DNA from: Longimicrobiales bacterium
Lineage (GTDB): Bacteria; Gemmatimonadota; Gemmatimonadetes; Longimicrobiales; Gaopeijiaceae
Length of the DNA stretch: 64,000 bases
Direction of reading: 5' to 3'
Assembly: GCA_965238005.1 (NCBI GenBank)
Contig: OZ250165.1
Coordinates: 2,624,001 to 2,688,000 of the forward strand
The position numbers and the translations under genes were made by a program. Shown here one piece after another: positions 34,698-64,000 of the stretch. Positions within the stretch are counted from its first letter, which is position 1; every line of letters starts with the position of its first letter. The notes under the pieces were generated by a model. It saw only the letters and a list, made by a program, of their open reading frames with translations. It had not been told where the DNA came from and did no database searches.

Positions 34698-34805
34698 GCC
34701 CGCTTCGCGGTGCTCGGTCGTCTCGGCGACTCTCACCCTGATCTCCGAGACCCTCCCGGCGCCTCGGCTCGAACCGGACCACACAGGCCGTTTCACACAC
34801 CATGC

Positions 34806-34852
34806 CAAGTGGGCGGTGGCAGATTCGAACTGCCGACCTCCTGGGTGTAAAG
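34806..34852 (-). repeat. att repeat: 3' half of tRNA-Val(TAC)
   Basis: Minus strand TTTACAC CCAGG AGGTC GGCAG TTCGAAT CTGCC ACCGCCCA; 5' half absent; 47 bp identical to 46952-46998. Confidence 0.85.
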
Positions 34853-35563: not shown

Positions 35564-35761
35564 ATGGAACGCCTACTCCAACTGATCCACGGGATACTCC
35601 CCCGCAGTCTGTGGCAGGTGCTTGGGATCTATCTTTCCTGAATTCGAGTTTTGGCTATCGGGTGCCGATTGGTACTGCTCCCGAGGTGACTCGTTCTCAC
35701 GGTATACGTTGTTTGGCCCATATGATGGGGCACCGCTCCTCTCGCTTTCGGGACACACTCG

Positions 35762-35851
35762 ATGTCCGACGCCACCTCTCGCCTAAACGCCGCCCTAGAA
35801 GGCCGCTACGCCATCGAGCGTGAGCTGGGCGAGGAGATGAAGCAGGAATGA
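35762..35851 (+). other. Ser/Thr kinase N-terminal stub A (29 aa)
   Basis: MSDATSRLNAALEGRYAIERELGEEMKQE*; stop overlaps ATG of the LRR gene (ATGA). Confidence 0.8.
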
Positions 35852-36091
35852 ATCGCCGTATACTGCCGCTCCTTATGGGCTCGCTTCTTCTCCTGCTGGG
35901 CTGGGGGTGTAACGACGACCCTACCGGCCCAACCGATCCGTTCTGTAGCAGCCAGCCAGCCTCGGCCATCGTGACGTTCGAGGACGCCAACTTGGAGGCA
36001 CAGGTTCGGGCTGCACTCTCGGTCGGTGCTCAGGAGGATCTCACCTGCGGCCTGGTATCTGGGGTGGGGGTCCTACGTAACAACATCCTAG

Positions 36092-37692
36092 GAGTCTGCG
36101 CCGCAGAACCCTGCGGCGGCTATCTTTGGTGGTAGCGAAGGCATTGGGAAGGCTTGCGGATCACCGAGGGGGGTGAATGGGAACGACATTTCGACCGTAC
36201 GATCCGGAGCAGATGTTGTTGCTGCCTCCGGATCTTCGGGAGTGGGTGTCGGAGGGTCATTTGGCGCACCATGTGAGCGACCTGGTGGACGCGGTGGAGC
36301 TGAGCGCGTTCTACGGGCGGTACCGGGGGGACGGGCGGCGCAACTCGCCGTACGACCCTCGGATGATGGTCAAGGTGCTGATCTACGCGTATGCGACGGG
36401 CACCTTCTCGTCGCGGAAGATGGCGAGGAAGCTGGAGGAGGATGTCGCGTTTCGGATGCTGGCGGCGGAGAACTTCCCGAAGCACCGGACGCTGTGCGAG
36501 TTCCGCAAGCGCCATCTCGGGGATTTCCGGGCGGTGTTTGTGGAGGTGGTGATGCTCGCGCGGGCCTTGGGGCTGGCGGGGCTTGGCAGGGTGTCGGTGG
36601 ACGGGACGAAGGTTCGGGCGAACGCGAACAAGCGCAAGGCGATGAGCTACGGCCGGATGGTGACCGGGGAGCCTCGGCTGGAGGCGGAGATCCGGGGGCT
36701 GTTGGAGAGGGCCGAGGCGGTGGACGAAGCGGAAGACGAGCGCTACGGCGAGGAAGCATGCGGAGACGAGGTGCCGGAGGAGCTCAAGCGGCGCGAGGAC
36801 CGGCTGGCGGCGATCCGGGAGGCGAAGGCGCGCCTGGAAGCCGAGCAGAGAGCGGCGGACGACGCACGGGGCCGCAAGCCGGGGCAGACGCGCAACCCGA
36901 AGGGCGGCAGGCCCTACAAGCGGGAGTACGGAGAGCCGGACGAGGCGGCGCAGAGCAACTTCACGGACCCTGAGAGCCGGATCATGAAGACGAGTTCGGA
37001 GGGGTTCCAGCAGTGCTACAACGCACAGACGGTCGTGGAGGGGGAGAACCAGCTGGTGGTCGGGGCCGAGGTGACGGACAACGCGAGCGACCAGGGCCAG
37101 CTGGTGCCCATGGTCGACGCGGTGGCGCAAGCGTACGGCGAGATGCCGGCGCAGGTGCTGGCGGACACAGGCTATTGCAACGAGCGGGATCTCGAGGAAC
37201 TGGAAGAGCGAGACATCGACGGGTATGTGGCGCTGGCCCGGGAGGGCAAGGCCGCCCCCACGGTTGACAAGGAGGAATATCCGGCGAAAGTCCGCATGGC
37301 GGAGAAGCTGGCGAGCGAAGATGGCCGCAGACGCTACGCACGGCGAAAGTCGCAGGCCGAGGCGCCCATCGGCTGGATCAAGGAAGTGATGGGCTTTCGA
37401 CGATTCAGCTTCCGGGGCCTCGAGAAGGTCCGGGCCGAGTGGACCCTCGTGTGCCTGGCACTCAATGTGAAGCGGCTGCACACCCTTCAGGCGGCATGAC
37501 TGCACGAGGGTTCACCCGCATCTGCCGGCGCGAGGGCTCTCGTAGCTCTCTTGCCCCCCCAACGCATCCATTCCGCTCTCCCGATCCGTCGCAGACACAA
37601 GTCCTCAACCTCCCAATCACCCGGATCCGCCTCGCCGCGGACGGCTCGATGACCATTCGGCTCAGTCAGCTGTGCTTCTGCGGCGCAGACTC
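36092..37692 (+). mobile_element. IS1182-family insertion sequence
   Basis: Terminal IRs GAGTCTGCGCCGCAGAA / TTCTGCGGCGCAGACTC, flanking CTAG duplication. Confidence 0.9.
36177..37499 (+). CDS. IS1182-family transposase
   Basis: YDPRMMVKVLIYAY, SSRKM, VDGTKVRANA, NFTDPESRIMK, ADTGY. Confidence 0.92.
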   Translation: MGTTFRPYDPEQMLLLPPDLREWVSEGHLAHHVSDLVDAVELSAFYGRYRGDGRRNSPYDPRMMVKVLIYAYATGTFSSRKMARKLEEDVAFRMLAAENFPKHRTLCEFRKRHLGDFRAVFVEVVMLARALGLAGLGRVSVDGTKVRANANKRKAMSYGRMVTGEPRLEAEIRGLLERAEAVDEAEDERYGEEACGDEVPEELKRREDRLAAIREAKARLEAEQRAADDARGRKPGQTRNPKGGRPYKREYGEPDEAAQSNFTDPESRIMKTSSEGFQQCYNAQTVVEGENQLVVGAEVTDNASDQGQLVPMVDAVAQAYGEMPAQVLADTGYCNERDLEELEERDIDGYVALAREGKAAPTVDKEEYPAKVRMAEKLASEDGRRRYARRKSQAEAPIGWIKEVMGFRRFSFRGLEKVRAEWTLVCLALNVKRLHTLQAA

Positions 37693-38344
37693 CTAGCGCC
37701 CGGAATCAGGAGCTTGGCAGGCATCGAGCACCTCACCAGCCTCGTCGAACTCAGCATCGGCTTCAGCTCGATTACGGACATCAGCCCATTGAGCGGACTG
37801 ACAAGCCTAAGGGTCCTCCGCCTCGGTTTCAACTCGATCACGGACATCAGCCCGCTGAGCGGGCTAACGCGCCTGACTGGTCTTTTCCTCCGAGGCAACT
37901 CAATCACCGACATCAGCCCGCTGAGCGGGCTCACGAGCCTGACGGACCTCAGCCTCCGTGACAACTCGATCAGCGACATTAGTGCGCTGAGCGGGCTCAC
38001 GCGTCTGACGACCCTGCGGCTCGACAACAACTCCGACCTCAGCGACATCCAGCCCCTGCTGGACAACACAGGGCTTGGAGCGGGCGACGAGGTCAACCTC
38101 GTTGGCACGGGCGTGAGTTGTACAGACGTGGCTGCCCTGGAAGCCAAGGGAGTGAGCGTGACGTCCGACTGCCGTGACGACGCGCTCGTCACGATGAACC
38201 GAGCCCGCTCGTTACGTATTCGAGTGAGACATTATGAGACCTACGGAAAGACAGGACGGGTCAGGGGTGCGTACGATAGGTGTGTGGTGGGTCAGCGTTG
38301 CGAGGGCTTCGCTCGATTGCCTTACGCCGTCGTTACGGGAGGCT

Positions 38345-38824
38345 ATGATGAGACCAATCGCCATCATATTGATGTGTGCTTTTTGTGCCGCCGAATCCAA
38401 GGCGCAGGTTGCTGTTGAGTTGTCTTACGGCGCTGATCGCAACGTTGAATCTGCGCAGTCAGAACGCGATGGCTGGTTGAACGGAACCGTGGAGTGGATG
38501 TTTCCCTCCGGGCTAGGGGTCGGGATCGGGACGGATCACCAATTCGAGGGCGCCGCGTTAAGCACCAGCGATCATCTCGGCTGGGCCATCTATTTGTCCA
38601 CAAGCTACGAGTATCCTACGCGCATAGTGGCTCCATTTGTTCGGGGCGGGGTCGGGCTTGGTCGGGCGCCCTGCGAGGGCGACGTTTGTAGGAGTGGTGC
38701 GCATTTGCGTGGCTCGGCGGGAGTCAGGATACGCATCGTCGAGGCACTGCGCGTCTCAGGCGAGCTTGGAATCAGTCGGGTGAGCCGACCGTTCGGCGGT
38801 GCTGGCGTATCATTTCGATTCTAG
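38345..38824 (+). CDS. Small outer-membrane beta-barrel-like protein
   Basis: Signal peptide, alternating beta strands, C-terminal GAGVSFRF. Confidence 0.6.
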   Translation: MMRPIAIILMCAFCAAESKAQVAVELSYGADRNVESAQSERDGWLNGTVEWMFPSGLGVGIGTDHQFEGAALSTSDHLGWAIYLSTSYEYPTRIVAPFVRGGVGLGRAPCEGDVCRSGAHLRGSAGVRIRIVEALRVSGELGISRVSRPFGGAGVSFRF

Positions 38825-41202: not shown

Positions 41203-41264
41203 TGATGGGCTCTACGTGAGAGGTGCCACCGAGTGAAGCGATCTCTGGGCCCTCGCCTGCAATC

Positions 41265-42584
41265 ATGATTCCGGTGGAGACCAGATACGCCGTCAACGCT
41301 GGGTCTTCGATTGCCTACCAGGTGGTCGGGGAGGGCTCACAGGATCTCGTCATGATCCCCGCTTTCGTGTCCAACTTGGAGGTCCAGTGGGAGATTCCCC
41401 CGATACGGCGTTTTCTCGAGCGGCTGGCTTCTTTTTCTCGACTGATCATCATGGACAAGCGGGGAACCGGACTCTCGGACCGAGTCCCGGTGGACCAGTT
41501 GCCCTCCCTTGAGGAGCGAGTCTCTGATGTTGTGGCGGTGATGGATGCGGCCGGCGTAGATCGCGCCACGCTGTTCGGCGTCGCGGAAGGTGGGGCGATG
41601 GGCGTCCTGCTCGCGGCAGACCATCCAAAGCGAGTTAACGGGCTCGTGCTATTCGGCTCCTATGCGAAGAAGGAGCGTGCAGCCGGTCAGCTAGACCAAC
41701 TGTCGGCTTTCGTGAAGCGGATTGAAGAGAACTGGGGGACCGGTAGCGTCTTTGCGGAGCGGAGCCAGAGCGTGGCGGATGACCCGGTTATGAAGAGCCT
41801 CCTTGCCAGATACGAGCGACACGCTGCGAGCCCACAGGCTGCCGCCGCCATTGTGCGCATGGGAGCGACCATCGACGTGACAGCGGCCCTCGGATCCGTA
41901 AACGCGCCCACCCTGGTACTCCACCGCCGCGGCGACCCAAACATCAAGATCTCGGGCGCCCGAGCATTGGCTGACGGTATCGGGGATGCACGCCTGATCG
42001 AGCTACCTGGCGTGGATCACATGCCATTCTTCGGTGACACTGATCAGTTGCTGTGTGAGCTCGAAGAGTTTGTCACCGGCACCAGACCGGAGCCGGAGCC
42101 AGACCGGCTTCTAGCCACCGTCTTGTTTATTGACATAGCAGGTTCCACGGAGATAGTGGGCCAGATCGGTGACCACCGGTGGCGGGACCTGCTAAGCTCA
42201 TTCTTCGCGACAACAAGGTCGAGCCTGAGTCATCACGCTGGTACCGAAGTCGATACAGCGGGCGATGGGTTGTTCGCGACCTTCAGAAGTCCCACGCAGG
42301 CGATACGGTGCGCCTGCGATATTCGGGACTCTGTGGGAGAGCTCGGCATCTCGATCCGTGCTGGGGTTCATGCCGGGGAGGTCGAGCGCCAGGGTCAGAA
42401 GATAGCCGGTCTAGCGGTTCATATCGGTGCGCGTGTTGCCGCTGCGGCCACCGCCGGTGAAGTTTGGGTCTCCCGGACCGTCCGTGATCTCGTGACCGGC
42501 TCAAGCATCGCGCTTGGGGATCGAGGACTTCACCAGCTCAAAGGGGTGTCGGAGTCCTGGCGACTATACGTTGTAGAGGACTAG
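41265..42584 (+). CDS. Alpha/beta-hydrolase-class III adenylate/guanylate cyclase fusion (LipJ-like)
   Basis: IAYQVVG, DKRGTGLSDR; cyclase TVLFIDIAGST, TAGDG, RAGVHAGE, GLAVHIGARV, LKG. Confidence 0.9.
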   Translation: MIPVETRYAVNAGSSIAYQVVGEGSQDLVMIPAFVSNLEVQWEIPPIRRFLERLASFSRLIIMDKRGTGLSDRVPVDQLPSLEERVSDVVAVMDAAGVDRATLFGVAEGGAMGVLLAADHPKRVNGLVLFGSYAKKERAAGQLDQLSAFVKRIEENWGTGSVFAERSQSVADDPVMKSLLARYERHAASPQAAAAIVRMGATIDVTAALGSVNAPTLVLHRRGDPNIKISGARALADGIGDARLIELPGVDHMPFFGDTDQLLCELEEFVTGTRPEPEPDRLLATVLFIDIAGSTEIVGQIGDHRWRDLLSSFFATTRSSLSHHAGTEVDTAGDGLFATFRSPTQAIRCACDIRDSVGELGISIRAGVHAGEVERQGQKIAGLAVHIGARVAAAATAGEVWVSRTVRDLVTGSSIALGDRGLHQLKGVSESWRLYVVED

Positions 42585-46833: not shown

Positions 46834-46951
46834 CGCAGGACCTCCTTTTCTTGTGTCCCCGTGGGATGCAAACGGGATGCAATTGAGAAAAGAGGCGGAA
46901 AACGGAACAGCACGAAAAGCTCCATAAGCCGCCTGTTTACTAGGTTCCTGG

Positions 46952-46998
46952 CAAGTGGGCGGTGGCAGATTCGAACTGCCGACCTCCTGGGTGTAAAG
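46952..46998 (-). repeat. att repeat: 3' half of tRNA-Val(TAC)
   Basis: Identical to 34806-34852; upstream sequence cannot form anticodon, D or acceptor stems. Confidence 0.85.
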
Positions 46999-57089: not shown

Positions 57090-57460
57090 GGGTACCTCGC
57101 GGAGCAGGACCCGTAGGTTTGTCAGTGTTTGATAGTGTTTACATAGCTATCCTACGCTTTATTAGTGTTTGATGCAATTTGTCAAAACGACCACACGGGG
57201 AGTTCCGAACCCACTCGGCTCCCCCGCACCCTCCATCGCCTTCTCACCGGCCCCTACGGCACCCTCCCCCTCCCGATCGTGTTCGTGTCCGTCCCAAACC
57301 AGATGGTCCGTGTAGCCTCGTGGAAGGGATAGGCCATTCCCAAAGGCCTTTGGCCGAGTTCAGCATCCTCCTCGGGCGAGCCGAGGCACCTCAAGGACAT
57401 CCCCTTGCGAGGCCGTGCCCAGTTCAAGGTGCACGCTCGCCGTTCGCCCATGCAAGGACG

Positions 57461-57629
57461 AGCCGACAACGCCCCTCTAAGCCACGAGTACGCTCCGGCC
57501 TACCTCCTCCCAGATACCGAATAAAACCTGAAGACGCGCAGAACGCGCTCTCAGGCGTTCTGCTTGCGCCTACTGGACCACTCTCGGATGTTCACCACGG
57601 TCTGATCCTCCGATGCTGGGGAACGCTCG
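57461..57629 (+). repeat. Conserved non-coding element, copy 1, upstream of kinase stub B
   Basis: Shares AAC..TCTAAGCCACG..ATACCGAATA..GAAGACGC..CAGAACGCG..GTTCTGCTTGCGCCTAC with 58840 and 63038. Confidence 0.85.
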
Positions 57630-57791
57630 ATGTCCGATCCCATCGTCCGCCTGAACACAGCCCTAGAAGGCCGCTACGCCATCGAGCGTGAGCTTGGTGA
57701 AGGTGGGATGGCTACGGTCTATCTGGCCGACGACCTACGCGATGAACGGAAAGCCGTGCTAAAGGTCCTCAAACGTGAGGAAAATCGGTGA
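57630..57791 (+). other. Ser/Thr kinase N-terminal stub B (53 aa)
   Basis: MSDPIVRLNTALEGRYAIERELGEGGMATVYLADDLRDERKAVLKVLKREENR*; stop overlaps GTG of next ORF (GTGA). Confidence 0.85.
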
Positions 57792-58180
57792 GTACGGACG
57801 ACGGCGGCGTTTGGGATCGTGCCCAGAAAGCCCTGGACGAGAGCTCGTCGCACATGGCCGAGCGGAGCGCCCTCAGGGTGCGACTCACGGCGTACATCGC
57901 TGAGCGGAGCGCCTGCGAGGCTAAGGGCACAGTCCCTCGCGGCGTTCGGAGACGGGGGGAGCGGCTCCTCGAGGAAGTCTCCGCTCTTGAGGAGCGCTTA
58001 GACCCGGTCGCCGATCGGATAGCAGAAGGAGACGCAGCCGTCCTCGTGGACGATGGAGCCACAAAAGCAACCGCCCCCACACGCCGCCTTGACACGGTGG
58101 GGGGAGAGGCTAAGCCTCCGCCTCCGCCACCTCCTTCGCCTCGAGTAACGCGTCCTCCGAGCCGAGGGTGTGGGGGTTGA
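57788..58180 (+). CDS. Hypothetical protein
   Basis: 130-aa ORF with GAGGA RBS, coupled to stub B. Confidence 0.45.
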   Translation: MSTDDGGVWDRAQKALDESSSHMAERSALRVRLTAYIAERSACEAKGTVPRGVRRRGERLLEEVSALEERLDPVADRIAEGDAAVLVDDGATKATAPTRRLDTVGGEAKPPPPPPPSPRVTRPPSRGCGG

Positions 58181-58235
58181 GAAGGCGCTCGAAGTCCCGG
58201 CGAGGTCTGAGTAGCATCCACTCAGGAGGGCATCT

Positions 58236-58763
58236 ATGTCGGGCAAGGCGATACGGAAGCACGAACTGCGGAAGGCGGCTCGTGAGCACGTTGACCACGA
58301 AATGGCTCGATTCCTTGACTTGCATGTCGAGATCAATCGGGGATCGCACCAAGGGATCGTGCTCGGTGCAATTCTCACGGCGTACGCTTCTCACGCTCGC
58401 AACCTGCTCGAGTTCTTTAAAGAACGCACGCCCACGAGACCCGCGCTTCATCCGGGAACGGCCTACTTCAGTCTCTACCTCCCTTCGGGTGTCTTGAACC
58501 GGTTTGCGGGGCTGTACAACGGGCCAGAGGAGCACGTTTGGTCTCGCGCTACACAGCAGGTGGCGCACTTGAGCGGCTTCCGCGCTGGGGCCGATCTAAG
58601 ACGAAAGCGCTGGCGAAGGCTCAAGGAGTGGGGCAGCCGCTATCACCGAGACGCCATCCTCCCGAAGATCAGAACGGCCCTGGACGAAGTGCGGGGTGCG
58701 GCCACAACCTTCCCGAGCACCTTCGCTGCCTTCAGACGATGGGAAGCGGCAGGAAAGCCTTAG
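58236..58763 (+). CDS. Hypothetical protein
   Basis: AGGAGG RBS; 175 aa, HARNLLEFF and QVAHLS motifs. Confidence 0.6.
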   Translation: MSGKAIRKHELRKAAREHVDHEMARFLDLHVEINRGSHQGIVLGAILTAYASHARNLLEFFKERTPTRPALHPGTAYFSLYLPSGVLNRFAGLYNGPEEHVWSRATQQVAHLSGFRAGADLRRKRWRRLKEWGSRYHRDAILPKIRTALDEVRGAATTFPSTFAAFRRWEAAGKP

Positions 58764-58839
58764 CTTGGTCATCGCGTGCTTTTCGCGCTGGGGCTGCCAT
58801 TGGTGTGGCTGTAGCGAGCCGTCCGAGGCCGAACCCGTT

Positions 58840-58995
58840 AACGGCGTTCTAAGCCACGCGAGCGTTCCAGCCTACCCAGGATACCGAATAAACCCCGAAG
58901 ACGCTCAGAACGCGAATACAGGCGTCTGACAGGGTTCTGCTTGCGCCTACTGGACCGCTCTCGGATGTTGAGTACACTCTGATCCCGGAGTGCCC
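58840..58995 (+). repeat. Conserved non-coding element, copy 2, upstream of kinase stub C
   Basis: Same motif blocks as the 57461 and 63031 copies. Confidence 0.85.
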
Positions 58996-59655
58996 ATGTC
59001 CGATCCCATTGAACGCCTCAATACCGCTCTAGGGGGCCGCTACGCCATCGAGCGAGAGTTGGGTGAGGGCGGCATGGCCACGGTCTATCTCGCCGAGGAC
59101 CTCAAGCTTCACCGCAAGGTCGCCTTGAAGGTCCTACGACCGGAACTGGCCGCGGCACTCGGCCCCGAGCGTTTCCTCCGCGAGATCGAGATTGCCGCCA
59201 AGCTGCATCACCCACATATCCTTGCGCTCCACGACTCGGGCGAGGCCGATGGCTTTCTCTACTACGTGATGCCTTACGTCGAGGGCGAATCACTCCGCGA
59301 TCGCCTGAATCGGGAGAAACAACTTCCCGTCGAGGACGCCCTGCAGATCGCTCGGGAAGTGGCGGACGCGCTCGGCTCCGCCCATCGCCACGACGTCATC
59401 CACCGCGACATCAAGCCGGAGAACATCCTGCACGGCGTCGTCCACCGCGACATCAAGCCGGGCAACATCCTGTTGAGCGAGCAGGGAAAGCCACTCGACA
59501 CCGGAGGGGAACATCATGCGGTATCTCATCCTGGCCCTGGCTCTGAACACCGGCCTCACCGCCTGCGCCAGCGGCGGTGCGGGGAGTGGGGGAGCCGGCG
59601 GGGCGCGGAACCTGATCACCTTCGAGGAGATCAGGCGGGTGGACAATCTTCGTGA
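58996..59655 (+). pseudogene. Truncated Hanks-type Ser/Thr kinase (stub C, to the catalytic loop)
   Basis: GEGGMATVY, VALK, HPHI, HRDIKPEN followed by a second HRDIKPGN; no DFG/APE; frame runs on into the next gene. Confidence 0.88.
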
Positions 59656-59905
59656 TGCGTACGAGATGGTGCAGATTTTACGGCCGCTCTGGCTCCGGGC
59701 CCGCGGAACGGTCAGGCCGACAGATCCGAACGCGAGCCTGCCCAGGGTCTACGTGGACGAACTGTGGTTCGGACTGGGGCTCGAACACCTGCGGAGGATC
59801 ATCTCCACCACGGTCCATCAGATGCAGTTCCTCGATCGATCTGAGGCAGAGATGCGGTACGGGTCGGGGCACCCGGGCGGGATCATCATGGTCCTGACCC
59901 GGTAA
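59516..59905 (+). CDS. Small lipoprotein (TonB-receptor-plug-like)
   Basis: GGAGG RBS, LTAC lipobox, LRPLWL, RYGSGHPGGII. Confidence 0.7.
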   Translation: MRYLILALALNTGLTACASGGAGSGGAGGARNLITFEEIRRVDNLRDAYEMVQILRPLWLRARGTVRPTDPNASLPRVYVDELWFGLGLEHLRRIISTTVHQMQFLDRSEAEMRYGSGHPGGIIMVLTR

Positions 59906-59996
59906 GGCGGCGTGCGCGCATGGGCCTAAAGCTTTTCGCAGTCGGCGCTGTGGTCGCTGCCATATTTCCGGCACCGTCACTAGCGGGCCAAGGCAA

Positions 59997-60278
59997 TTGG
60001 CGTGGAGACTGCTGGCCATTGGCTACATCATGGCGTTCGCAGGGTGGATCGCGTTTGCTGTTCCGAATCTCTGGTCGCAGGCCCTTCCTCGTTGGAACCG
60101 ATTGCCGCTGTTGATCGGGCTGATCCCAGTGGCGGGGGCGGTTTTCATTTACCTAAGCGACTGGGTTCTAGCCATCGGGGCCGGCCTCTTCGGCGTGGCA
60201 TGGCTCCTACTGGGCTACGCCGTCTGGTCCGCCGAAGGTGTCCCTGCCGGAGGGACCACGGAGACGCCCCAGGCTTGA
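59997..60278 (+). pseudogene. Membrane protein C-terminal fragment 1
   Basis: LPRWNRLPLLI..LFGVAWLLLGYAVW; no convincing start. Confidence 0.45.
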
Positions 60279-60327
60279 ACACGCCATTGTCGCCGAAGTT
60301 CAGGACATCGTCGTCCAGAACTGCTGA

Positions 60328-60660
60328 GTGCTGTCAGGACCTCAGTTTGAGATGTCCTCGAACAAGCTGATCCGCTTCGAGGACCGGGCTTTGCGCCACT
60401 GGAATGGCATTCCCCTCATTATCGTACTGCTGCTAACTGGATGGATGATCGAGTCTCCCAGATGGATGCCATTGCTGCTCATGACGTTGTTCGGTGTGGG
60501 TTGGGTGATGCTCGGCTATGAACTCTGGCGCGTTACCCGATTGGATCACGGTAAAGCCACGATAATCCGATCAGGCTGGGCCAGCCCGTTCATATCTTCT
60601 GGGGGCCACGCATCAGTCCGATCCAGCCATCGCCCAACCTCAGCATCACCCATAGCTTGA
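60328..60660 (+). pseudogene. Membrane protein C-terminal fragment 2 (paralogous to fragment 1)
   Basis: LRHWNGIPLII..LFGVGWVMLGYELW. Confidence 0.45.
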
Positions 60661-60777
60661 GCGCATGGGCATGGTGAGGCTGTCGCGGTAGGCATCCGGC
60701 TCGCGTACTTCGCTTGCGGTCGGCATCTTGGACGCGCAGTAGAGTCGCAGAGACGTTAGACCGTCGGGAGGATAGCC

Positions 60778-61422
60778 ATGGCCGAAACTAAAGAAGTCAC
60801 GAAGCCGCGGGACTACCGCCGGCGGCGGTTGCCGCTGCTTCTCTGTTGGCCACTTTGCTCGTTTTTGATCACCGGATGCCGTGCATCGGAAGAACAGCAG
60901 ACGCTCAGTGATGGCCCACGTTACCTAAATGGAACGAGCCTTGTGCGTCCAATTGACTATCGCGAGTGGCCATTCGTTGGTTCGGCTCTCGGCTTGACGT
61001 ATGAAGCCGAAACAGCTTCGTCAGATGCGCCGCCCATTTTCACGAACGTTTTCGTGAATCCCTCTTCGCACCGCGGCTTCATGGAGACGGGGGTGTGGCC
61101 GAGCGGCACCGTGTTCGTTCTAGAATTCAGGCGCTCTCAGACTGACGCAGCCCCAAATAATAAGGGAGGGCGATTTCAAGGCGATTTGTTGGGCTTGGAG
61201 GCCGAGGTAAAGGATTCCCGATTTTCGGACGGATGGGCGTTCTTCAACTTCGGAAGGGGCACAGATCTAACAGAGGTTGCGGCCCCGCTGTCAGGTGCTG
61301 CTGCGGCTCCGTGTGTACAGTGTCACACGAAGGAAACGGCCGTGGAACGCACGTTTGTACAGTTCTATCCCACGCTGCTACAAGTGGCTCGCCACAAAGG
61401 CACGCTGAAACCGGGGTTCTGA
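60778..61422 (+). CDS. Cytochrome P460/c'-beta family protein
   Basis: YREWPFVG, NVFVNP, GTVFVLE, VKDSRF..GWAFF, C-terminal CVQCH, FVQFYP. Confidence 0.85.
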   Translation: MAETKEVTKPRDYRRRRLPLLLCWPLCSFLITGCRASEEQQTLSDGPRYLNGTSLVRPIDYREWPFVGSALGLTYEAETASSDAPPIFTNVFVNPSSHRGFMETGVWPSGTVFVLEFRRSQTDAAPNNKGGRFQGDLLGLEAEVKDSRFSDGWAFFNFGRGTDLTEVAAPLSGAAAAPCVQCHTKETAVERTFVQFYPTLLQVARHKGTLKPGF

Positions 61423-61439
61423 AACGGGAGCCTGTATGA

Positions 61440-62240
61440 GCGGTACCCCTCAAACAACTCGTAGTCGGCGCTCGAGCGGGTGACCACGGCGAGTCCGGCA
61501 TAGGCCCACAGGTTGCGCTTCGTGCGGAAGCGCCAAGGCGTACCAATGGTTGCCAACAACAGCGCGATACGCACGGGCCCGCAGTAGGGGATCGTCTCGA
61601 GCACCCCAAAGGCCGGATCGCGCTTCGCTTCAGCGACCATGGCCGCCTTGGTCTTCTTGCGCTGAGTCCGAAGCACATCGAGCTGAGCGTACAGGGTCTC
61701 GGCACGTAGCCGAGCACCGTGCTCGGGTAGCTGTGCGACCCAGGCGGCGCGCCCCTTCGGCTGGTAGACACCGCCGCCCGTGGTTCGGATGGCCCGCGCA
61801 CGGAAGAGTGCCTTGAGCCGCAGCATCACGCGCGTGCCGTCCTCGACGAGGTTGCGATAGGCTCGAGTCAGCTCCTTGAGATCGGCCCGGCCGTGTGCGC
61901 CGTGGTATACCGCTCGCAGGCTGCCGCACCGCAACTGCTCCGACAGTTCGTCGGCATCGACCTGGTCCCCCTTGTTGCCCGATCGCTTCTCGCCTCTGCG
62001 GTCGCACACGATCACCCGGTCTACACGAGGACTCAGTAGGTCGTAGAGCCACTGCGCCTGTGTTCCCTCCTCGAACACCACGTGCACCGACCCAGCCATC
62101 GCGCTGAAGAACTCCCTTATCGATTCGTCGCTCGTCTCCACCACGCTGCGCGCGATCACACGCCCCCCTTCGCTCCGAACCGTCGCCACCGTCATTGCCT
62201 GGTGCACGTCGAGCCCCACATACTTGGTGTTCCGCTTCAT
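61440..62240 (-). pseudogene. IS110-family transposase, 3'-truncated
   Basis: YVGLDVH, FEEG, KGDQVDA (DEDD domain), TIPYCGP, RF......AYAGL; homology ends after SSADYE. Confidence 0.85.
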
Positions 62241-62385
62241 GAGAGCCGCCCTCTGCTGTGGTCCATGGTTGTTTCGCAACTCCACGGTACCCACAGGGGG
62301 CGTGCTTTCAAGTTGTGTTAGAGCGCAGCTGGCCGGCACAGGTGAGTGAGGCTGATGCCAATGCTCGCCACGTGCAGTGGCTCGC

Positions 62386-62811
62386 TTAAGAGCGGTTCAA
62401 GATGATGCGGAGTGTGGCCGCAACGGAAGAACCGCTCCCGAAGTCGAACTGGCTGGCCGGGTTCGTGAGCGTCAGAACGTTTCCGTTCCGAGACGCATCG
62501 AACGGGGCGCCTGCGAGCGTGAGCGTGGTTCCGGACGAGTTCAGGGTCCCGGAGTCCGAACTGCTGCCACCAACACCGTCGTCGAACAGAGTGCTCGCAC
62601 TTCCGGCGGCATCCACGGTAAGCGTAAAGCTCGCGCCGTCGCGCTGGATGATGTCGGCGACATTCTGAGAGTTCGCGTTATCTGTGAACTCATAGACGGA
62701 GGCGGTCCAGGTTCCCTCTAGATCAACCGCTTCTAGGCCAGTACCGTCGTCACCGCAGCCGACGGTGACAACGGCCAAGGCAAGAATGGGCAGTAGACGA
62801 TGGAGCTTCAT
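62386..62811 (-). CDS. Putative lipoprotein (lipocalin-like beta protein)
   Basis: MKLHRLLPILALAVVTVGC lipobox, LEGTW motif. Confidence 0.7.
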   Translation of the reverse strand: MKLHRLLPILALAVVTVGCGDDGTGLEAVDLEGTWTASVYEFTDNANSQNVADIIQRDGASFTLTVDAAGSASTLFDDGVGGSSSDSGTLNSSGTTLTLAGAPFDASRNGNVLTLTNPASQFDFGSGSSVAATLRIILNRS

Positions 62812-63030
62812 TACCTGAGTCCTTTTCGGGGGATGGAAGGCGAGTTGAAGTAGGGGCGCTGCAAGGGGAGTGCCAGCCTGAAGACCCTGCACAGGTCCTA
62901 CAGGGCGTGGTGTCTAGCTGGTCGGCGGGGTGGACCCTTGTGGAACAACATTGCCGCCCTCAGCAACCTCTTTGCCCCCCCCGCCCGCCGTGCTGCCGCT
63001 GGTGCTGCGTTAGTCGCGAACAGATCAGCA

Positions 63031-63205
63031 AGCCGATAACGGCCCTCTAAGCCACGAGCACGCTCCAGCCGGACCCAAATACCGAATACACCCCGAAGAC
63101 GCTCCAGAACGCGAATACAGGCGCCTGACACGGTTCTGCTTGCGCCTACCGGCCCGCCCATAGGATCTTGCTCAAGTGTGATCTGCCGTAGCCGAGGACA
63201 TCCAG
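63031..63205 (+). repeat. Conserved non-coding element, copy 3, upstream of kinase stub D
   Basis: Same motif blocks as the 57461 and 58840 copies; contains palindrome CAGGCGCCTG. Confidence 0.85.
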
Positions 63206-64000
63206 ATGTCCGATCCAGTTGACCGCCTGAACGCAGCCCTAGAAGGCCGCTACATCATCGAGCGTGAATCGGGCGAAGGCGGGATGGCCAGAAACCTTCT
63301 TCGAGGGAGCCGCGGTCGATCCCCTCGAGCTGGTGCAACAGCCTTGAAATCGGCCACGAAAGCGGACGTTATGGTCAAGAACAACAAGAGTACGCCAGCC
63401 ACGTCACCCGAGGCGGGAATCTCCATCATCGGCATGGGGATGATGCTGAAGGGAGAATGCGAGACGGACGGCGCTCTCAGGATCGAAGGGACCGTCAACG
63501 GGGACGTTCACGCAGGCAAGGCCGTGGTGATCGGCAAGGAAGGGCTCGTGGACGGCAACATCTACACTCAGGACGCGGTCATCGCCGGTCGGGTGCTCGG
63601 CTCTGTTCACGCGTCACGTCTCGAGCTGCAATCCACGGGTTACATCGAGGGGGAGGTCGTAGCGCTGCGCATGCAGCTTGCTGAGGGTGCCACACTCACG
63701 GGTCAGGTGTCGGTAGGTGAGTCCCAAGCTCCGTCCCGCGGGAAGGCTGCCACTCGTGGGGAGGGTGCCGTAATCCACGGTCAGGTGTCGGTAGCGGACT
63801 CTCAGGCCGCGTCTGGCGGGCAGGCTTCCGCTCGTAAGAAGGGGGCCCCCGAGGGCACGCCGGAGGATGGTAGGAGAGAGCATGTAGGCGCGTTCATCGC
63901 GTCGGCGTCAACGGCGATCAGGAAGGCACTGGCGTCCCCCGGGTGGCCGAAGCCCCGGGCGTTGCCCGCGACGTCACCCGGGATGAACCCGGACGAGCAA
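63206..64000 (+). CDS. Bactofilin (polymer-forming cytoskeletal protein) fused in frame to kinase stub D; runs off window
   Basis: MSDPVDRLNAALEGRYIIERESGEGGMA.. reads without stop into MVKNNK (ATG 63371) ..ISIIG.GM.LKGECETDGALRIEGTVNGDV..VVIGKEG.VDGNI...DAVIAG.V.G.V..LEL. Confidence 0.8.
   Translation, partial: MSDPVDRLNAALEGRYIIERESGEGGMARNLLRGSRGRSPRAGATALKSATKADVMVKNNKSTPATSPEAGISIIGMGMMLKGECETDGALRIEGTVNGDVHAGKAVVIGKEGLVDGNIYTQDAVIAGRVLGSVHASRLELQSTGYIEGEVVALRMQLAEGATLTGQVSVGESQAPSRGKAATRGEGAVIHGQVSVADSQAASGGQASARKKGAPEGTPEDGRREHVGAFIASASTAIRKALASPGWPKPRALPATSPGMNPDEQ

Follow-up and report, generated by a model that had tools for sequence, protein, structure and literature searches.

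Kinase stubs with a shared upstream element precede unrelated genes in a Longimicrobiales genome and are probably relics of a collapsed kinase family

Locus

The DNA analysed here, called the window throughout, is a stretch of 64,000 nt (G000:C1:2624001-2688000) from a Longimicrobiales genome, G000, which is a single contig of 4.84 Mb with 64.8% G+C. The subject is a repeated unit consisting of a non-coding upstream element and the 5′ end of a Ser/Thr kinase gene, followed by an unrelated gene, here called the cargo. A first-pass annotation had proposed that this unit is recombined onto incoming genes as a portable promoter and translation leader.

The upstream element, hereafter the 5′ element, is ~165 nt long and is followed by a ribosome-binding site and the first kinase codons; in the genus of G000 it comprises a distal module of ~100 nt and a proximal module of ~55 nt. 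Copies were aligned to an nhmmer profile of 720 positions, built from five long copies of G000, in which the tail of an upstream open reading frame (ORF) occupies positions 1-78, the element ~82/93-248, a GGAG 250-253 and the kinase start codon 261-263. The features of the window that belong to the units, or lie in or beside them, are as follows.

35760-35851, + strand: kinase 5′ stub without upstream element, 24 homologous codons (profile 259-333, homology to 35834)
35762-35851, + strand: ORF of this stub, its TGA (35849-35851) overlapping the ATG at 35848 (ORF analysis)
35848-38418, + strand: gene for an LRR lipoprotein, the cargo behind the 35762 stub, split by an insertion sequence (IS) (ORFs; LRR_4, DDE_Tnp_1, DUF772)
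~36091-37690: IS5/IS1182-type insertion sequence of 1.6 kb, CTAG-flanked, inside the LRR gene (transposase ORF 36177-37499)
57322-57466, + strand: separate dispersed intergenic repeat just 5′ of element copy 1 (about ten genome matches, 75-89%)
57461-57629, + strand: 5′ element copy 1, distal and proximal modules (profile 93-260)
57630-57791, + strand: kinase stub with 50 homologous codons, to 57779; its stop (57789-57791) overlaps the GTG at 57788
57693-58259, + strand: block made up of the stub end and a 130-aa ORF (57788-58180, no Pfam match)
58743-58831, + strand: remnant of the conserved upstream-ORF tail (...ALGLPLVWL and stop), present in about ten copies of the repeat
58832-58995, + strand: 5′ element copy 2 (sequence comparison, profile)
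58996-59496, + strand: kinase stub of ~150 codons, Pkinase positions 1-130 (profile matches 58743-59437 and 59431-59496)
59469-60668, + strand: cargo block with ORFs 59516-59905 (lipoprotein-like, 129 aa), 59997-60278 and 60328-60660, no Pfam match
60604-60672, + strand: 3′ element, 70 nt, which follows intact-kinase stop codons and forms the right end of a recombination tract
62992-63205, + strand: upstream-ORF tail remnant and 5′ element copy 3 (element proper 63030-63205)
63206-63290, + strand: 28-codon kinase stub that reads in frame into bactofilin in G000 (profile end 345)
63298-64000, + strand: bactofilin gene region, continuing beyond the window (Pfam Bactofilin)

All four kinase starts reported by the first-pass annotation, at 35762, 57630, 58996 and 63206, were present. 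None of them heads a complete kinase, the longest copy covering positions 1-130 of the 263 of Pkinase (Pfam), and the homology breaks off at a different point in each, after 24, 50, ~150 and 28 codons (profile 333, 410, 702/716 and 345, respectively). Three copies carry the upstream element (57461-57629, 58832-58995 and 63030-63205), with pairwise identities of 74-85%; the 35762 copy does not, and its homology begins 2 nt before the start codon. The cargo had been described as different behind each copy, which Pfam matches bear out for LRR_4 (37672-38418) and Bactofilin (in the 63206 frame); the other cargo ORFs had no Pfam match. The two overlapping joints agreed with their first description, as did the in-frame joint of the 63206 copy, whose open frame extends past 64000.

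The 58996 stub holds an out-of-register duplication of 42 nt at its HRDIKP motif (59389-59430 and 59431-59472). The bactofilin behind the 63206 stub is a paralogue (78-85%) of a gene at genome 4422148-4422930 that has no element, and its own start probably lies near 63353-63371. The upstream-ORF tail is itself a component of the repeat, and an intact version of its gene was not found; upstream of one tail copy, outside the shared repeat, lies a broken transposase that we take to be IS91-like (zinc-binding, HxH motifs). The intergenic repeat at 57322-57466 adjoins some 5′ element copies and stands alone elsewhere, and intergenic regions here are seemingly assembled from several short repeat modules.

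A dispersed repeat family

Together, the element and the kinase start make up a single dispersed family, to which the profile assigned 85 matches across the 4.84-Mb genome, and in this respect the first-pass annotation was right: the unit is a real repeated module heading many unrelated genes. Among the 85 matches were 35 kinase stubs, defined by a start codon and an end before profile position 600, and 3 full-length kinases. The three window elements, used as BLASTN queries, matched 45 places in the genome. Repeat depth over two intact kinase loci was 30-36 across the element and the first ~100 coding nt, 1 across the gene body and 13-17 across the 3′ element.

Left ends of the copies fell into three clusters, at ~93 (the element start), at ~195-202 (the proximal module alone) and at 251-260 (the start codon). 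Six copies began at profile 91-100, many proximal-only copies at 174-202 and 11 at 251-260. Ten right ends lay at profile 246-257; these are element-only copies heading non-kinase genes, four of them cyclase-type. The remaining right ends thinned out over profile 263 to ~434, with few further on. Placement was clustered, with 27 of 49 bins of 100 kb occupied against 40 expected, and the copies lay in regions of lower G+C (0.629, compared with 0.648 for the genome).

Two further copies were found just beyond the window end, an element-only copy before a Guanylate_cyc and TPR gene and a 27-codon stub before a PD40 lipoprotein. At the latter (genome 2690378-2691663) the stub is followed by 114 nt and then by the PD40-repeat lipoprotein gene, whose PD40 domain is of the same type as the C-terminal part of the intact kinases; this gene may derive from a kinase gene by internal deletion of the kinase domain. 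Cyclase-type signalling genes also occur among the element-headed genes elsewhere in the genome, and in the window itself an ORF at 41223-42584 encodes an alpha/beta-hydrolase domain fused with an adenylate/guanylate cyclase domain.

Within the element, a GGATGTTGAC block is conserved, and a stem AGACGC...GCGTCT with a variable 17-nt loop is accompanied by a GCCGTTAACGGC palindrome. In G011, a genome that represents another genus of the family, conservation is limited to the proximal module, which presumably holds the promoter.

A second conserved sequence, the 70-nt 3′ element, stands directly after stop codons, at 60604-60672 in the window and at 17 other places in the genome. Its copies were 88-100% identical within the genome (one copy 80%) and 92-100% in two genomes of the same genus, making it better conserved between species than the neighbouring genes (~77-95% alike). 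It had no Rfam match, no terminator-like hairpin and no stable fold. Fourteen of the 18 copies have a co-oriented 5′ copy no more than 6 kb upstream, where ~1 would be expected by chance on our own estimate from copy density, and only two of these 14 paired units hold intact kinases.

The exact proximal pattern was found in 48 stretches of public genome contigs, whose titles name Longimicrobiales, Gemmatimonadetes, Gemmatimonadota or Gemmatimonadales metagenome-assembled genomes (MAGs), together with one Bryobacterales contig. In these 48 loci, 16 matches had their right ends at 246-264 and the rest at 268-458.

The source kinases and their decay

The intact genes encode Pkinase plus PD40 proteins of ~900 aa, one of the three in G000 being fused behind a cyclase domain. 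Numbers of full-length kinases of the subfamily differ between genomes as follows.

G000, this genome: 3
G001, same genus: 1
G002, same genus: 0 uninterrupted
G011, sister genus of the same family: 20, plus one with a TAG

Two copies in G002 (G002:C14:107037-109717 and G002:C9:430284-432964) each run through three successive frames (query 1-422, 420-809 and 803-904), and are either twice-frameshifted pseudogenes that were duplicated as such or assembly errors. In G011, a near relative, the family is intact and large, and the stubs of G000 are homologous to its intact paralogues from the start codon onwards.

Over codons 2-21, compared with the consensus, 24 stubs showed 86 synonymous and 73 non-synonymous codon changes, and seven long copies 25 and 15. 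Both ratios are far from neutral, so the stub lineages diverged mostly while coding; by this codon comparison the stubs are old, separate paralogue lineages and not recent copies of one master. Decay was evident in at least 4 of the 35 stubs, with an ORF shorter than the homology at 1662144, 4172534 and 4473931 and a lost start codon at 1665585; most stubs are still open.

Several joints are old. At least four are common to G000 and G001, with identical end points and homologous cargo (profile ends 395, 345 and 232, and the joint of the element to a cyclase-kinase). At the bactofilin joint the end point in G001 is that of G000, but the stub carries an in-frame TAG and is not fused, so that the bactofilin fusion is not a conserved feature. 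In the 19 loci analysed in G001 there were 33 profile matches, only one of which continues as a long kinase, and G001 copies often lay at synteny breaks relative to G000.

Junction phase and orientation

The first-pass annotation had argued that simple decay would not be expected to yield the pattern seen, in which the joints of all three short stubs are productive, by overlap or in-frame fusion. A script run over the 35 stubs gave 26 joints, five stubs being without a co-oriented ORF and four without a start. The frames of the downstream ORF relative to the stub were 7/8/11, or 8/8/12 when the 63206 and 57630 copies were added by hand, which does not depart from random (chi-square ~1.1, p ~0.56, worked by hand). 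Joints in the same frame read as fusions, and +2 joints nearly always end in an NTGA overlap; ATGA joints were also seen at genome 2165988 and 4326452, besides window 35848. Fusion or overlap is therefore near-automatic in two of the three phases, about two-thirds of joints will look productive by chance, and the argument fails. An excess of stop-start coupling over the two other frames, which had first seemed significant, was discarded as confounded, since in that phase a TGA with A, G or T before it automatically supplies a 'start'.

Orientation was not random: for 24 of the 28 copies with a proximal module, the nearest called gene behind the copy (up to 600 nt away) was co-oriented, compared with a same-strand background of 62.5% (p 0.007). 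A first gene caller, based on G+C by codon position, was dropped since it did not separate real from shadow ORFs. No common sequence follows the joints, the junction sequences being all different.

Movement of copies and cargo

Between 59469 and 60668 the window was identical at 48-50 of 50 positions per bin to genome 421.9-423.8 kb (the 423k locus), while the element and stub of the 58996 unit were only 60-80% alike at the two places. The left end of this tract lies in the conserved HRDIKP motif and the right end coincides with the end of the 3′ element. The second copy of the 42-nt duplication is kinase sequence of the 423k locus, and the 423k element with its first ~85 nt is ~98% like the 63030 copy of the window. 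The 423k locus, with a 5′ end like 63030 and a 3′ end like the 58996 unit, illustrates that the copies are mosaics. A stub-plus-cargo arrangement was thus pasted recently into another kinase locus, truncating that kinase. In favour of the first-pass proposal, a cargo block has recently passed from one kinase locus to another through recombination in their conserved flanks; the co-orientation of the next gene and the pairing of 5′ and 3′ elements around mostly non-kinase interiors also speak for it.

The block 57693-58259 recurs with 98.6% identity at genome 1676254-1676818, where it is parted from its stub by an IS. The IS5/IS1182-type element is present in 45 full copies of 99.8-100% identity, each CTAG-flanked, one of them at genome 2660096, which points to a recent burst. 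Five IS copies abut stub sequence, two of these with unrelated DNA on the other side, which is what recombination between IS copies would be expected to leave. IS21-, IS3- and IS110-type genes, recognised by eye and not by a family search, follow some stubs. A break at profile 324-331 was considered as the 8-bp target duplication of an IS aimed at the kinase and was rejected, the IS merely using CTAG, of which there are one or two sites in the stub. A locus with the same flank and stub and different cargo in G001 and G000 was explained by an IS3-type insertion in G001.

Other features of the window

Window 60680-62321 holds a gene for cytochrome P460 (60778-61422) and, on the minus strand, an IS110-family element (61446-62321). 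The IS110-family element has ~16 copies of 94-95% identity in G011, one of which again adjoins a 92% copy of the P460 region, and P460 may be a passenger gene travelling with it. Towards the other end of the window, G+C falls from ~0.67-0.70 to 0.60-0.64 at ~34 kb. To our eye a 50-nt direct repeat (34803-34852 and 46949-46998, 98%) looks like a tRNA 3′ half on the minus strand, a reading made by inspection; tRNA calling gave no gene anywhere in the window. There was no integrase among the large ORFs between the two repeats, six ORFs of at least 180 aa having been scanned in 38-50 kb.

Interpretation

We consider it fairly probable, on the sequence comparisons above, that the units are relics of a Pkinase-PD40 family that has collapsed, the control region being kept and probably reused by downstream genes and the copies being reshuffled by recombination and IS. 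The arrangement looks like large-scale promoter reuse after kinase loss and not like a dedicated gene-capture machine. Use as a control region is favoured by the ten copies with sharp right ends before non-kinase genes, by the co-orientation of the next gene, by the conservation of the proximal module in another genus and by its exact pattern in the 48 public stretches. The unit would have served as control region upstream of the genes for a large set of paralogous membrane Ser/Thr kinases (Pkinase plus a PD40 propeller) of Longimicrobiales-type Gemmatimonadota. Almost all kinase bodies would have been lost or replaced in this genus, leaving behind the control region, a stub 1 to ~150 codons long and, in many places, the 70-nt 3′ element, and the promoter of the former kinase would probably now drive transcription of the gene behind the stub. 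Homologous recombination or gene conversion would keep the copies alike and could paste a stub with its cargo into another kinase locus, and IS landing in stubs would provide a second route of reshuffling. Promoter activity, selection for promoter retention and erosion of stubs by deletion are what we infer. The earlier statement that decay would not give such a pattern was too strong, considering ~20 intact kinases in the sister genus against 3 here, the age of the stub paralogues and the TAG in G001.

Several observations weigh against collapse of the kinase family with promoter reuse. There are 35 5′ stubs and roughly eight internal or 3′ fragments, an asymmetry not expected from random deletion, and stub ends are concentrated in the first ~60 codons (profile 263-434) in place of the scatter of break points that random deletion would give. 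Twelve of the paired units lack an intact kinase and the interiors inspected hold other genes, which looks like replacement and not like deletion. Only 4 of the 48 public loci with the exact proximal pattern run on as kinase to the locus end, and of the 6 loci in the single record that is a complete chromosome, 1 does so; stubs are thus common even where kinases may be plentiful. As to the promoter, a sigma-70-type consensus scan of 57300-64000 found no site, and the assignment of TTGCGC as -35 and GATGTT as -10 is a guess. The sole RNA-labelled run, X20, gave only short pieces with 2-15 differences each. The gene calls on which the orientation and phase tests were run were crude, being made by a filter on ORF length and composition.

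A different account of the same tract and pairing is that the 5′ module and the 70-nt 3′ element serve as homology arms of 'expression sockets', that is, of a cassette system without recombinase in which the genes between the arms are copied to other sockets, taken up from relatives or swapped between strains, and expressed at once. The pairing of 14 of the 18 3′ elements with a 5′ copy, with kinases in only two pairs, and the exact ends of the 423k tract are what such a system would give, as are tight packing (for example a 165-aa gene in ATGA overlap with its stub, the 3′ element 35 nt past its stop), the clustering of copies in regions of lower G+C and the presence of cargo paralogues elsewhere without the element. 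However, only one transfer is clear and ordinary gene conversion between repeats yields the same tract, the first joints are all different and require illegitimate recombination, junction phase is random, several joints are old and simply inherited, and the sole case of one locus with different cargo in two species is the IS3 insertion. For gene capture, as envisaged in the first-pass annotation, no recombinase, fixed junction site or common junction sequence was found, and no integrase family was detected among the 22 window and flanking ORFs scanned. We regard the socket account as rather unlikely; were it true, Longimicrobiales would possess a dispersed, integron-like means of capturing and expressing accessory genes. 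Misassembly between full-length kinase paralogues, in a long-read MAG, had been named beforehand as a possible source of the joints, and a single-contig metagenome-type assembly with many repeats, at which short-read contigs break, makes the idea reasonable in principle. Contigs of other public runs and studies nevertheless bridge the three window joints checked, 57779 in run X7 (record 23), 59496 in X7 (record 24) and 63290 with 0 differences in X1 (record 4) and X2 (record 10), either of which may be the source sample itself, and at least four joints recur in the genome of another species. The tested joints are not misassemblies, this explanation being already refuted for them, and its overall probability is negligible.

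Two further readings concern the element itself. It could be a transposing miniature element, of the kind of miniature inverted-repeat transposable elements (MITEs) or Correia-like elements, with an outward promoter and with the kinase stubs as carried flanking DNA. Its ends are fairly sharp (the six left ends at 91-100 and the ten right ends at 246-257), inspection of the alignment by eye showed an imperfect inverted repeat, 6-7 nt long (GATCAG...CTGATC), at the two ends, and copies lie at synteny breaks between two species. Yet neither a target-site duplication nor an empty site was found, the comparison with G001 included, the copies match one another at 70-88% and include no young burst, they have no associated transposase, and the stubs are old separate paralogue lineages. 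Many copies hold the proximal part only (from profile 174-202), the form conserved in the sister genus. The ends are variable, where such elements have fixed ends with terminal inverted repeats and target duplication; we think this reading improbable. Still less probable, and at best a slight chance, is that the element encodes a small RNA or a structured leader, resembling a riboswitch or targeted by a regulator, which controls a signalling and envelope regulon. Conservation of a non-coding sequence over species and genera, its continuation into the first ~100 coding nt and the stem and palindrome described above could all be read in this way. But no curated Rfam model matched, at the gathering score or at E<=1, the consensus fold was weak (-4.4 forward, -11.8 reverse), single copies folded no better than shuffled sequences (z -0.7 to -1.3), leaving no stable or consensus fold, and the palindromes are equally compatible with DNA bound by a protein.

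If the units are relics of the kinase family, they offer a natural system for studying the promoters left by a collapsing gene family, their takeover by neighbours and the role of conserved flanks as homology arms. The stubs also mislead annotation, where they give rise to numerous spurious short 'kinase' ORFs and spurious N-terminal extensions, the bactofilin fusion being an example.

Comparison with known systems

In integrons, a common promoter serves interchangeable promoterless cassettes, with an integrase and attC sites. The units would resemble them in having a common type of promoter before interchangeable promoterless cargo, and differ in that no attC-like site and, among the 22 ORFs scanned, no integrase family was found, and in that the cargo is dispersed over the chromosome, each with its own copy of the presumed promoter. 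Correia, ERIC and REPIN sequences are short dispersed intergenic repeats able to supply promoters and to mark points of rearrangement, properties that the present element may share; here there are no clear terminal inverted repeats, target duplication or transposase, and the variable ends enter coding sequence.

The remnant of a gene at the head of an operon is similar in that the promoter and first codons of a lost gene precede a surviving one and the stub decays, as the stop in G001 illustrates. Here, by contrast, there are 35 stubs of one family with ends skewed to the first ~60 codons, and the 3′ element of the family is kept around foreign interiors. Concerted evolution by gene conversion would account for mosaic copies, such as the 423k locus with the 63030 5′ end and the 3′ end of the 58996 unit, and for tract ends in conserved sequence; what is different here is that non-homologous cargo was carried between loci of the family and the kinase truncated.

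The closest described kind is that of the putative mobile promoters, which are stretches of upstream DNA with high similarity (80% or more over 50 nt or more) before unrelated genes within a genome, shared between related taxa and spread by a mechanism that is unknown (Nijveen, Matus-Garcia & van Passel 2012, PMC3575422). Most families in that catalogue are pairs, its filter removed cases extending into coding sequence, and Correia elements, ERIC and REPIN are named there (PMC3575422). The 58832-58995 element matched 20 other places at 80-88% over 116-164 nt, and is within the identity limits of the catalogue. The genes downstream of the 10 element-only copies are non-paralogous, as are the cargo genes; in the literal sense this does not hold for the 35 stub-bearing copies. 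The present family departs from the catalogued ones in that many copies carry a coding stub and a paired 3′ element is present. Reuse of promoters has been catalogued mostly as pairs of which neither source nor mechanism was known; the present family numbers dozens of copies per genome, over several public Gemmatimonadota-type (mostly Longimicrobiales) MAGs, with a source gene family that can be identified and is intact in the sister genus, a visible tract that moved cargo and a second conserved end element.

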